Below, in pieces: positions 30,981 through 32,641 of a DNA stretch of 64,000 bases (position 1 is its first letter; each line of letters begins with the position of its first letter). Below the pieces are notes generated by a model. That model made no database searches. It saw nothing but the letters and a program-made list of their open reading frames with translations, and had not been told where the DNA came from. Both the position numbers and the translations under genes were made by a program. Location: IMG/VR virus record IMGVR_UViG_3300023184_000085; one strand, given 5' to 3'. This stretch comes from an uncultured virus (IMG/VR IMGVR_UViG_3300023184_000085) (Duplodnaviria; Heunggongvirae; Uroviricota; Caudoviricetes).

Positions 30981-31259
30981 ATGAATAGTATATCGAGTTT
31001 GTTTACAGATCCAAAAATTCAACAAATAAAAAAATTGGTTTTTGAGATTTCAAAAACCAAATATGTTGAAAATGAAGAAATAATAGAAAGATTGTGTTCC
31101 CTTATATTAACAAAACACGATGGAGAGAAATTTATAAAACTAATAATGGACATTTACGAATCTGGCTATAAAAAATCGGTTAACGATCATAAAGAAATAC
31201 TTGAGAAACTTGGATATTCTGTTAAGATAACAGGCACTCAATCAGAAAATGCTGGTTGA
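30981..31259 (+). CDS. Hypothetical protein
   Basis: AAGG RBS, 92 aa. Confidence 0.6.
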   Translation: MNSISSLFTDPKIQQIKKLVFEISKTKYVENEEIIERLCSLILTKHDGEKFIKLIMDIYESGYKKSVNDHKEILEKLGYSVKITGTQSENAG

Positions 31260-31807
31260 TAGGAAGAAATAACACATTTAATAAGAAAGCCTCCAGACTT
31301 TTCTTCTAACTGCGATACGCTCCACCATCTTTTCATTTTGTTTTTAGGATACAATATTGAACCAAAGTCAATATTTTTAACTGTCGTCCAACATTCGAAA
31401 TTAACATCTGTTTCTTCTGTTATCACTATTTCTAATACAAAAGGCGTATCGTATGAAATAGTTTTACGAACTTCATCGTATAACGAATCCACTTTACTTT
31501 CTACTTTCGTAGGCAAACAATAACACAAGGTTGTTGGAATAGTTATTTTTTTATCTTGTTTTGGAGGTGGAACTTCTTCTTTTTTTACAGCTTCTTCTTG
31601 TTTGGGCGGATTTCTTTCCAATTCTTCGATAAAAGGATCTTTTTTTACAACTGTTTCTTGCGATACATTGTTATCTTCGGAACCAAAACTATAAGGATTC
31701 CATTCCATATTATGAAGAACATATCCATTCCAAGTTTTTTGTTCTTTCATAACTGGTATTGGACCGTTTAATTTAAAAATTGAACCATCTGAATTTTTAA
31801 TAGCCAT
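31238..31807 (-). CDS. Possible divergent paralog of the gp14-like head-closure protein
   Basis: IKNSDG, DSLYDE and GSILYP...WWSV parallel motifs in 32642..33184. Confidence 0.45.
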   Translation of the reverse strand: MAIKNSDGSIFKLNGPIPVMKEQKTWNGYVLHNMEWNPYSFGSEDNNVSQETVVKKDPFIEELERNPPKQEEAVKKEEVPPPKQDKKITIPTTLCYCLPTKVESKVDSLYDEVRKTISYDTPFVLEIVITEETDVNFECWTTVKNIDFGSILYPKNKMKRWWSVSQLEEKSGGFLIKCVISSYQPAFSD

Positions 31808-31925
31808 GCAATATAATATCAACATATATCTAAAAAATATTGTTAAGTAAAAAATACCAAAGGCAATACTATATAAGATTGTATCGGAAATTATGATTTT
31901 TAATATGCCAATTAATTTGGTGAAA

Positions 31926-32076
31926 TACCGTGGGGTACACGGAAATTAAAGCTGGTTGAGAGGATAAGTTTCATGTCGAGAAATCAACAAGTCACCATCT
32001 AATAGACCAGAATCAAACAAAAAATCTGCTTATAGATTTTTATAAGTTTGTATACCAAAATTACTTTTTGGAGATT
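31926..32076 (+). ncRNA. Orphan TnpB/IS607-type omega-RNA-like element (scaffold ~31926-32056 plus putative guide)
   Basis: Stems CCGTG/CACGG, CTGGT/ACCAG, AAAC..AAAAATCT/AGATTTTT..GTTT; loop GGTA complementary to TACC at 32053-32056; preceded by a decayed tnpB-like C-terminus. Confidence 0.6.
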
Positions 32077-32083
32077 GATTTAC

Positions 32084-32539
32084 ATGGCACTTATAGTTCC
32101 AAACGATAGCGAAATTCTCCTGTTGCAATATATAGTTAACTCTACCAATACTGATGGAACTGCACCTACGGCTACAGTTGCAACATATTCTAGTGGCAAC
32201 AGAGTGTTACATCTTTTCACAAACAATTTAACTCCAGCAGAAACGACGACTATTGGTGCGGTAACAGAGGCGACAGCATCTGGATACGCATCGATTACTC
32301 TTCTTGGCACAGCATGGAGCATTGGTACTGATGGGGGTGGAGTAACTACTGCAAGTTATTCTGAAGTTACATTTACATTTACAACCGCAGTAACTTGTTA
32401 TGGATATTACATTACCACTAGTGCTTCGTATTCTGGCGGTGTAAAACTACTATGGCTTGAACGATTTACAGGCGCACCTTTCCAATTGCCTTCTGGTGGT
32501 GGTCAAATCGCTATAACACCAAAAGTTTCACTAGAATAA
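32084..32539 (+). CDS. Virion structural (tail-associated) protein
   Basis: GGAG RBS; LHLFTNN, GYASITL and YGYY pattern of small phage tail proteins; Thr-rich; own terminator. Confidence 0.6.
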   Translation: MALIVPNDSEILLLQYIVNSTNTDGTAPTATVATYSSGNRVLHLFTNNLTPAETTTIGAVTEATASGYASITLLGTAWSIGTDGGGVTTASYSEVTFTFTTAVTCYGYYITTSASYSGGVKLLWLERFTGAPFQLPSGGGQIAITPKVSLE

Positions 32540-32564: not shown

Positions 32565-32600
32565 AAAAAGGGTCGATTTAATAATCGACCCTTTTTTTTT
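32565..32600 (+). terminator. Intrinsic terminator
   Basis: aaaaagggtcgatt/aatcgaccctttt stem followed by a T-run. Confidence 0.85.
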
Positions 32601-32641
32601 AATTTTAAGCAATATATAGATTGTCACAAACTGGGGTGGAA

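Follow-up and report, generated by a model that had tools for sequence, protein, structure and literature searches.

In a 64,000-nucleotide stretch of an uncultured caudovirus (IMG/VR record IMGVR_UViG_3300023184_000085; here called the window), the divergent intergenic region of 276 nt at 31808-32083, with up189 on its left (minus strand) and dn151 on its right (plus strand), contains an element that is very probably a homologue of TnpB omega-RNAs, encoded without a tnpB gene. TnpB guide RNAs are the ancestors of Cas12 guides, and the fate of guide RNAs after loss of the nuclease gene has received little attention, in phages above all. In this wild T4-like freshwater phage, only the RNA half appears to persist, fused to the expressed leader of a probable virion gene, with its fold and pseudoknot intact. 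Objects that bear an omega-RNA and no protein are already known; the setting in a phage late-gene leader is new. An earlier interpretation, made from the letters alone (the sequence-only reading), had proposed an orphan omega-RNA at this place. The account that we favour, with moderate confidence in the whole statement including the present-day role, is that an IS200/IS605-type omega-RNA module, whose protein genes were lost or never present, now forms the late-gene leader of dn151.

Homology and fold of the element

Omega-RNAs of the TnpB nucleases of IS200/IS605 and IS607 elements are treated in excerpts of two papers (PMC8612924, PMC10097598). Our family sample comprised 80 tnpB loci from species genomes and four from viral contigs. 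The 3' ends of these genes share a common architecture. They begin with a hairpin (H1) and a short linker whose last letters are GC; UGGAG and UAAGAC pieces, a central stem and GAAGC or GAAUC come next, and a terminal hairpin, its loop resembling CUUUAG, is followed by UA or A, then by four or five bases, CA(A/C) and the flank. The pieces follow one another in the same order in the window. In a reciprocal search, with the element as query, nhmmer returned from 204 kb of tnpB loci four matches (E 0.018-0.4), all four on the tnpB strand and exactly at the gene's 3' end. A profile hidden Markov model (HMM) built from six tnpB-flanking RNAs had its sole window match at 31924-31965 on the plus strand (E 4.8e-6), and a profile HMM of 14 sequences gave E 3.5e-5 on the window.

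We also built a covariance model, R1, from an alignment of 20 real omega-RNAs, whose RNAalifold consensus contained 19 pairs, compensatory changes being present in 18; the window sequence was excluded from the models. On both strands of the 64 kb, R1 returned a single match that covered the full model, 31920-32043 on the plus strand (18.7 bits, E 9.1e-5, R1 E-values being rough by the model's own description). In the positive control, R1 matched 57 of the 63 tnpB loci that had been held out, always on the tnpB strand (58 matches, 12.4-70 bits). As a negative control, 36 related-phage loci (173,321 bases) yielded only a complete IS200/IS605 element in the relative L006 (44.6 bits) and six orthologous copies of the window element (15-18.7 bits). 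The assignment to a TnpB-type scaffold made by the sequence-only reading is upheld by these searches: models built from tnpB-flanking RNAs only match here alone in the window, and the controls are clean.

A covariance-model search, which the same reading had named as a check, comes out positive with the purpose-built R1 and negative with Rfam, a database that is powerless here. Nothing relevant was found in Rfam at gathering thresholds for the whole window or at E <= 10 for 31600-32300, and no RNA family at E <= 1 for L006:1-3100. This negative is uninformative, because Rfam release 15 was equally blind to genuine loci, with 0 matches at the gathering score on 20 of 20 tnpB loci (L058-L096, 600-nt 3' flanks). 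For the same reason, the lack of an Rfam hit is unfit for dismissing candidate omega-RNAs, and R1 would lend itself to searching phage genomes for further orphans.

The stems, the loop and the TACC described by the sequence-only reading can all be read from the sequence where it had placed them, and its stem order is that of the family's covarying helices H1, P2, P3 and the terminal hairpin (Table 1). The minimum free energy (MFE) pairs of the window coincide with family helices at 31928-42, 31952-56/32006-10, 31962-65/31997-32000 and 32014-50. H1, the family's most strongly covarying helix, is followed directly after its CACGG by GGAAATTAAAGC. In the central domain (31952-32010), UUGAGAGG, AUAAGU and CAGAAUC are conserved single-stranded pieces, and the terminal hairpin, in DNA form AAAC..AAAAATCT / AGATTTTT..GTTT (32015-49), corresponds to the family hairpin with a CUUUAG loop. 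Folding energy alone is no more than expected by chance (z -1.69 for 31885-32086, with 13 of 200 shuffles as low; -1.51 for the minus strand; -2.03 for 31886-32125, with 5 of 200 shuffles), whereas the homology to genuine omega-RNAs does exceed chance.

According to excerpts of a 2026 review (PMC13565253), prokaryotic omega-RNAs have a pseudoknot in which their 3' end pairs with the scaffold. In the family sample, positions 2-5 of the H1 loop pair with the four bases preceding the last two scaffold bases, for example GGAAC with GUUC, GGACA with UGUC and GGGCG with CGUC. All four pairs formed in 19 of 28 scored rows, and the mean was reached by 1 of 2000 permutations; the scored rows are 28 of the 64 non-window rows, the remainder having 3' ends that did not fit the regular expression. 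In the window, GGUA (31934-37) pairs with UACC (32053-56) at all four positions and in the family's register. UACC is preceded by UA and followed by AA, and family members are built likewise (..UA GUUC AC, ..A GUGUC AA). The combination GGGUA/UACC is absent from the other members, and none of their 12 distinct loops fully pairs with UACC; relative to them, the loop/TACC pseudoknot suspected from the sequence is compensated on both sides. In the orthologous copies L004 and L022, UACC is replaced by UGCC and the pairing is kept through wobble. RNAalifold found 0 pairs in the 3' module, where the MAFFT alignment is not structural, and the terminal hairpin and pseudoknot are therefore read sequence by sequence. 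The scaffold 3' end lies at about 32058: the covariance-model alignment in L022 extends to ...GTATGCCAA / ...GUAUGCCAA, and in the window itself the model sets the 3' end poorly.

No TnpB domain was found in 67 window open reading frames (ORFs) with Pfam and PHROGs, and a six-frame search of the whole window with an HMM of 77 TnpB proteins gave a best E of 0.18 among 1734 peptides (2.9e-151 for the L006 control), in agreement with the earlier remark that no tnpB is nearby. No transposase was found in the window either. The nearest genome record (G001, a 16.7-kb fragment) lacks both the locus and tnpB, and a search for TnpB domains in three small viral records of the lineage was negative.

The sequence-only reading had also seen a remnant of the TnpB C-terminus ('DxNAxxNL') just upstream, in a peptide that, as it stated, requires a frame shift; the in-frame peptide is MIFNMPINLVKYRGVHGN* (31895-31948). 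This remnant did not hold up. A profile of 77 TnpB C-termini was negative in every frame of 31791-31965 and gave the NMPINL frame -3.2 bits, and in L004 and L022 that frame has lost its ATG and suffered a 1-nt deletion. Pfam and NCBIfam searches of five frames gave no TnpB-type match bar one stray, TIGR01765 (E 0.071), rejected as the wrong domain in the wrong place. Because the TnpB profile searches of the window are negative, we regard the scaffold as an orphan and a protein remnant as unsupported.

Three small ORFs were likewise set aside. An 18-aa ORF has lost its ATG and frame in L004 and L022, and a 20-aa minus-strand ORF gains a stop there. A 9-codon ORF in the central stem (MSRNQQVTI, 31974-32003, with AGGA 8 nt upstream) shows one synonymous change (GTC to GTG) in relatives, which is too little to count.

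The element shares with TnpB omega-RNAs H1, the nested helices, the conserved single-stranded pieces, a CUUUAG-like terminal loop, a pseudoknot of 4 bp that joins the H1 loop to the bases ahead of the guide, and a guide that is the right-end flank; the omega-RNAs closest to it are those of L086, L075, L106 and L073. It differs in that no tnpB 3' end overlaps or immediately precedes it, in its GC content of 35% (37-68% in genuine matches), in the change of some family-invariant bases, and in being fused to the 5' untranslated region (UTR) of a phage gene, probably a virion gene, and transcribed with it. The IS607 type suggested by the sequence-only reading, which would call for a serine-recombinase TnpA as partner, was not borne out: the nearest complete element, in a related phage, carries a Y1 (IS200/IS605) transposase. 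A strong family match, L144, adjoins a MerR-type helix-turn-helix (HTH) ORF, and since L006 has the Y1 transposase and L144 this neighbour, R1 spans loci of more than one kind.

Could the resemblance be due to chance, the element being an ordinary structured late leader or a duplicated promoter of no transposon origin? We consider this very improbable and already largely refuted. The missing Rfam match, the weak folding z-scores, two late-promoter-like boxes in a direct repeat (see below) and the failure of an iterated, 3'-anchored HMM, which had drifted to another subtype, to find the window would fit it. Two independent models built without the window nevertheless match only the element, with clean controls; four of four reciprocal nhmmer matches fall at tnpB 3' ends; Rfam is blind to the family; and module order and pseudoknot register agree with those of the family. 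Our own first reading was a duplicated late-promoter region with a structured leader, following the T4 'e/soc' model of ribosome-binding-site (RBS) sequestration. It was dropped as the main explanation because the homology to the omega-RNA family appeared; the predicted accessibility, which did not separate transcripts, and the non-significant within-phage covariation also run counter to it.

The gap between up189 and dn151 in related phages

The element was found only at the orthologous locus, in six contigs (identities 100, 99.6, 94.2 and 93.1%). Exact element patterns occurred in the same four IMG/VR contigs only and nowhere in 185,579 species genomes; a blastn comparison of this region with 50,697 phage records was negative, and blastn and tblastx against the relatives' loci returned orthologous copies only. 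Where up189 and dn151 abut in relatives without the element, the gap measures 42-121 nt, so the lineage carries about 200 nt of extra DNA.

In the lineage of L006-L009 and L058, the same gap holds a complete IS200/IS605 element. It is a 1904-nt insertion relative to L024 (L006:545-2448, corresponding to L058:809-2712), inside a Cys-rich gene between the up189 and dn151 homologues. It encodes a 384-aa TnpB, in which Pfam recognises three TnpB domains (E 6.8e-27 to 1.6e-18), and a transposase of the Y1 type (PF01797, E 9.9e-26). Its omega-RNA is rich in GC and belongs to another subtype than the window element, which makes it a separate invasion of the gap. As judged from the loci compared, the gap is an insertion hot spot. 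Other insertions in it encode a Cys-rich protein of 260 aa, weakly matching a CapR domain, and a 116-aa double-HTH protein (L023:1643-2500; L043:2050-2500; L011/L012 upstream of 3001). The site resembles those of the free-standing homing endonuclease genes of T4-type phages, which in excerpts of the review cited above (PMC13565253) are likewise selfish elements between two conserved genes, and the same gap holds differing insertions in relatives (an insertion sequence (IS), a Cys-rich gene, an HTH gene); it differs in having no nuclease gene, only the RNA half of an RNA-guided system. Since the gap holds a complete IS200/IS605 element or other genes in relatives, these loci can be seen as a natural series of stages at one invasion site. 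Such a series bears on three fates of orphan guide RNAs: recycling as mRNA leaders, service in trans, and decay.

R1 also matched a more distant T4-like relative at L145:1501-1677 on the minus strand (G006:79681-79857, also present in G007 as L146), with 17.8 bits and a textbook 3' end (..GAUGAAGCGAGAAGCCCC..GGGGUAGUUCAC). No TnpB-sized ORF lies upstream of it; next to it are genes for a PDDEXK endonuclease and a tail-tube-like protein, and the same contig has TnpB-domain frames of 89 and 128 aa elsewhere. This match may be a second orphan omega-RNA of the phage group. At L144:1501-1608 on the minus strand (G008:104526-104633), a 60.6-bit match lies directly downstream of a 50-aa TnpB zinc-ribbon remnant (G008:104654-104776), which looks like an intermediate in IS decay, the RNA outliving the gene.

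The core of the window element is bracketed by an imperfect direct repeat of about 30 nt, whose second copy (32041-32069) consists of the scaffold 3' end plus flank. The local alignment score of the copies is 29, against 17.7 ± 3.2 for shuffles (3 of 1000 shuffles reach 29). Copy 1 mimics the succession 'stem, UA, four bases, AA' and resembles a late promoter plus leader. The repeat could derive from the right end of an older tandem copy, from similarity between left and right ends, or from promoter duplication.

In any IS200/IS605 element, the guide is normally the DNA flanking the right end. The sequence-only reading had seen no convincing target for the guide-equivalent stretch in the window, and we found no second window match at up to three mismatches. 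Within IMG/VR, the stretch has an exact 18-19-nt match inside an ORF (..FGKLLFGDWDDQEW..) at L157:401-418 and L158:401-418, two contigs of one unrelated virus lineage. We do not read this match as a target of the proposed guide; a rough estimate, with an assumed collection size, allows a few such matches by chance.

The RNA might still be used in trans, as part of an active protein-less element, by a TnpB from the phage, a co-infecting relative or the host. The complex would cut genomes that lack the element at the site (transposon-associated motif (TAM) plus AATTACTTTTTGGAG...), so that the element and its neighbours would be copied in, much like transposon homing or the marker exclusion known among T4-type phages. 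We think this use unlikely. In its favour, every omega-RNA-specific feature is kept, including a pseudoknot that would matter mainly for TnpB binding; the change from UACC to UGCC in relatives retains pairing, and no scaffold pair is broken; TnpB elements circulate in the phage group (the complete IS in L006, TnpB-domain frames in G006-G008); and relatives show the region to be a hot spot for insertions. Moreover, protein-less derivatives known as PATEs often carry omega-RNAs that need TnpB in trans, according to excerpts of Meers et al. 2023 (PMC10055086); like them, the element is an omega-RNA without a transposon protein gene in about 200 nt of extra DNA, with a hairpin-like palindrome near its left (31864-81) and a hairpin at its right end. 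PATEs, however, are repeated elements with defined ends, whereas we see one copy (one R1 match in 64 kb, exact patterns at the orthologous locus only), with neither a left end nor a TAM definable. The lack of tnpB in 64 kb, the lack of a near-identical copy in IMG/VR or the species genomes by exact patterns, the changed family-invariant bases and the low R1 score also argue against use in trans. Active element families are usually multi-copy.

A bolder version of this idea, which we rate as improbable, is that the phage keeps the tnpB-less omega-RNA on purpose, the TnpB- or TldR-like protein being supplied in trans (by its own genome, by a co-infector of the L006 lineage or by the host) and the guide being the ribosome-binding region of the virion gene. 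If so, the complex might cut the 'empty' alleles of competing phages, amounting to RNA-guided marker exclusion or homing among T4-like phages; alternatively, a complex on the dn151 5' region might switch late-gene expression under RNA guidance. TldRs are relatives of TnpB that lack nuclease activity and work as RNA-guided repressors, and their guide RNAs are encoded beside tldR. These RNAs resemble the element in having an omega-RNA-like scaffold, and their guide matches a promoter or 5' UTR in the excerpts of two reports (10.1101/2023.11.30.569447, 10.64898/2026.09.22.753285), as the element's flank holds the dn151 RBS. The element differs from them in that the window has no TnpB-like gene and its guide stands beside its own match, not a distant target.

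The element as proposed leader of dn151

In the account that we favour, the omega-RNA module of a TnpB transposon (31920-32058) would have inserted between the late promoter region and the RBS of dn151, and its protein genes would have been lost since, unless it arrived as a protein-less derivative. Transcription of dn151 would start upstream of 31898, from a TATA-rich late-type box, and because it would have to traverse the scaffold, the latter would be an obligatory 5' leader of the mRNA. The compact fold would be kept because an unfolding change would disturb the leader beside the RBS, and the 'guide' would merely be the flanking 5' UTR. Most likely the element no longer arms a nuclease: the copy stands alone, scores low and departs from the family at some invariant bases, UGGAG having become UUGAG and UGAAG not being kept. 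For its present-day role we rank a tolerated or exapted leader under partial constraint first, as moderately likely, followed by a trans guide and a neutral scar, both unlikely and on a par, with chance resemblance far behind.

Metatranscriptome contigs support the placement of the element as leader of a virion gene that the sequence-only reading had proposed: contigs of four runs connect the element with dn151. Contig X1 (31930-32453) contains the scaffold and dn151 coding sequence together. The others are X2 (31898-32048, plus two pieces), X3 (31931-32086, plus more) and X4 (31965-32181, plus more). Fourteen RNA runs contain part of this sequence; the cover derives from 4 of them and says nothing about the other 10 (shares 0.08-0.21), and the uncovered 31238-31897 and most of the sequence beyond 32511 are no evidence of silence. 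The query for runs included up189, yet no contig of the four runs lies on it. X1 and X3, from different studies, start at 31930 and 31931, inside the 5' arm of H1. The shared start is at most a faint hint of a processed scaffold 5' end, or an accident of assembly.

The scaffold differs from L022 at 10 of 135 positions, compared with 62 of 420 four-fold sites in seven neighbouring genes (p 0.027), and has diverged at about half the four-fold-site rate. The 5' UTR shows 0 differences in 25 positions (p 0.035). No scaffold helix pair is broken in the four distinct sequences: changes at paired sites turn G.U into A-U or A-U into G.U, also in the terminal hairpin, and the contig variant G31962A does likewise. 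As far as these sequences go, such wobble-mediated changes fit an RNA of the plus strand only. In the MFE structure of 31886-32125, positions 31906-18 pair with the Shine-Dalgarno sequence and AUG; this outer helix has one compensated and three broken pairs.

Several observations count against the leader account or temper it. The R1 score of the window is low, with just 3 of the 58 genuine held-out matches below it, and the E-values are, as said, rough. The absence of tnpB holds for the 64-kb window, and a tnpB or a dead relative of it may lie elsewhere in the phage genome. A bracketing direct repeat of about 30 nt is not known as a product of IS200/IS605 insertion. The metatranscriptome contigs give neither strand nor ends, and DNA carry-over or a processed small RNA is possible. 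Other intergenic stretches are as slow or slower (3/102, 16/160); the constraint is modest and need not be RNA-specific. Only two diverged lineages are represented, and covariation inside the phage falls short of significance, being equalled in 95 of 500 shuffles. Finally, the predicted RBS accessibility is not clearly different between long and short transcripts, and no leader mechanism emerged from the ensemble.

Some of these points would suit an inert scar, a recent leftover of a decayed IS that looks conserved through the closeness of the lineages and the slowness of intergenic DNA. Intergenic stretches elsewhere are equally or more conserved, the p-value of the scaffold is only 0.027, and the covariation is not significant; comparable decay is seen in the 60.6-bit match beside the 50-aa TnpB remnant of G008 and in the tnpB-less match of G006/G007. 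We still find this doubtful, as all changes at paired positions keep the pairs and the element is retained in six of six lineage contigs at 93-100% identity. In addition, the sequence would hardly be neutral for expression, because it is located between the promoter region and the RBS and is transcribed with dn151.

Genomic setting

The window, which comes from a T4-like myophage, has a GC content of about 31%. Genes recognised with Pfam and PHROGs include those for the tail sheath, two tube proteins, a sheath stabiliser of gp15 type, a baseplate protein and a late-type sigma factor, as well as genes of replication and nucleotide metabolism. The features discussed here are listed in Table 1.

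Table 1. Positions of the element, its parts and its surroundings in the window
Feature	Position	Strand	Description
up189	31238..31807	-	189 aa; without Pfam or PHROG family; syntenic with dn151 in most relatives (tblastn)
Left part of intergenic region	31808..31919		unrelated to tnpB, no TnpB signal in any frame; TATA-rich late-promoter-like boxes
Direct repeat, copy 1	31872..31901	+	about 30 nt, imperfect; TATAAGATTGTAT..AAATTA..TTTTT
Metatranscriptome cover	31898..32511		contigs of four runs from four studies
Probable omega-RNA scaffold homologue	31920..32058	+	about 135-139 nt; HMM and covariance-model matches
Hairpin H1	31928..31942	+	CCGUG 31928-32, loop GGGUA 31933-37, CACGG 31938-42
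P2	31952-56 with 32006-10	+	CUGG(U)/(A)CCAG; part of the nested central domain 31952..32010
P3	31962-65 with 31997-32000	+	GGAU/AUCU
Terminal hairpin	32014..32050	+	outer CAAAC/GUUUG, inner AAAAAUCUG/UAGAUUUUU, loop region CUUAUAG
Pseudoknot, 3' strand	32053..32056	+	UACC; UGCC in L004/L022
Guide-equivalent flank = dn151 5' UTR	32059..32083	+	Shine-Dalgarno GGAG at 32070-73; identical between lineages
dn151	32084..32539	+	151 aa; phrog_10467, no named family; ATG at 32084
Likely terminator hairpin	32570..32600	+	GC-rich GGGTCGATT..AATCGACCC, then T run

The dn151 product is probably a virion protein of the neck, collar or fibre type, as its predicted structure (predicted local distance difference test, pLDDT, 84) and position suggest. 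The model has weak fold similarity to phage connector and fibre proteins in the PDB (best E 8.6e-3) and five matches in BFVD at E <= 0.001, with the names 'minor tail' and 'tail-collar fiber' among the weaker rows. The gene adjoins those of the tail sheath stabiliser, sheath and tube. To judge from its sequence, the hairpin downstream is likely the terminator of the dn151 transcript.

In the left part of the intergenic region, one late-promoter-like box, CTATATAAG, occupies 31869-77, and a palindrome CAAT..ATTG spans 31864-81. The promoter of up189 must also lie within 31808-31919. up189 has no Shine-Dalgarno sequence, and a TATA-rich box (ATATTATATTG) touches its ATG (31793-31830, minus strand), a layout that is the same in relatives; its mRNA may be leaderless or nearly so. 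A consensus scan for promoters and terminators gave chance-level results only, and a scan of the window for tRNA and tmRNA genes found none.

For the gene after dn151, a start at ATG 32642 is probably more plausible than the listed TTG 32621. The sequence upstream of this ATG (32609-32641) contains CAATATATAGATTGT, similar to the box at 31869-31883, plus a GGGGTGG ribosome-binding site. The box shared by the two places may be a recurring late-promoter form of the phage; the window contains 19 occurrences of AATATATA, where 8.2 ± 3.5 would be expected.

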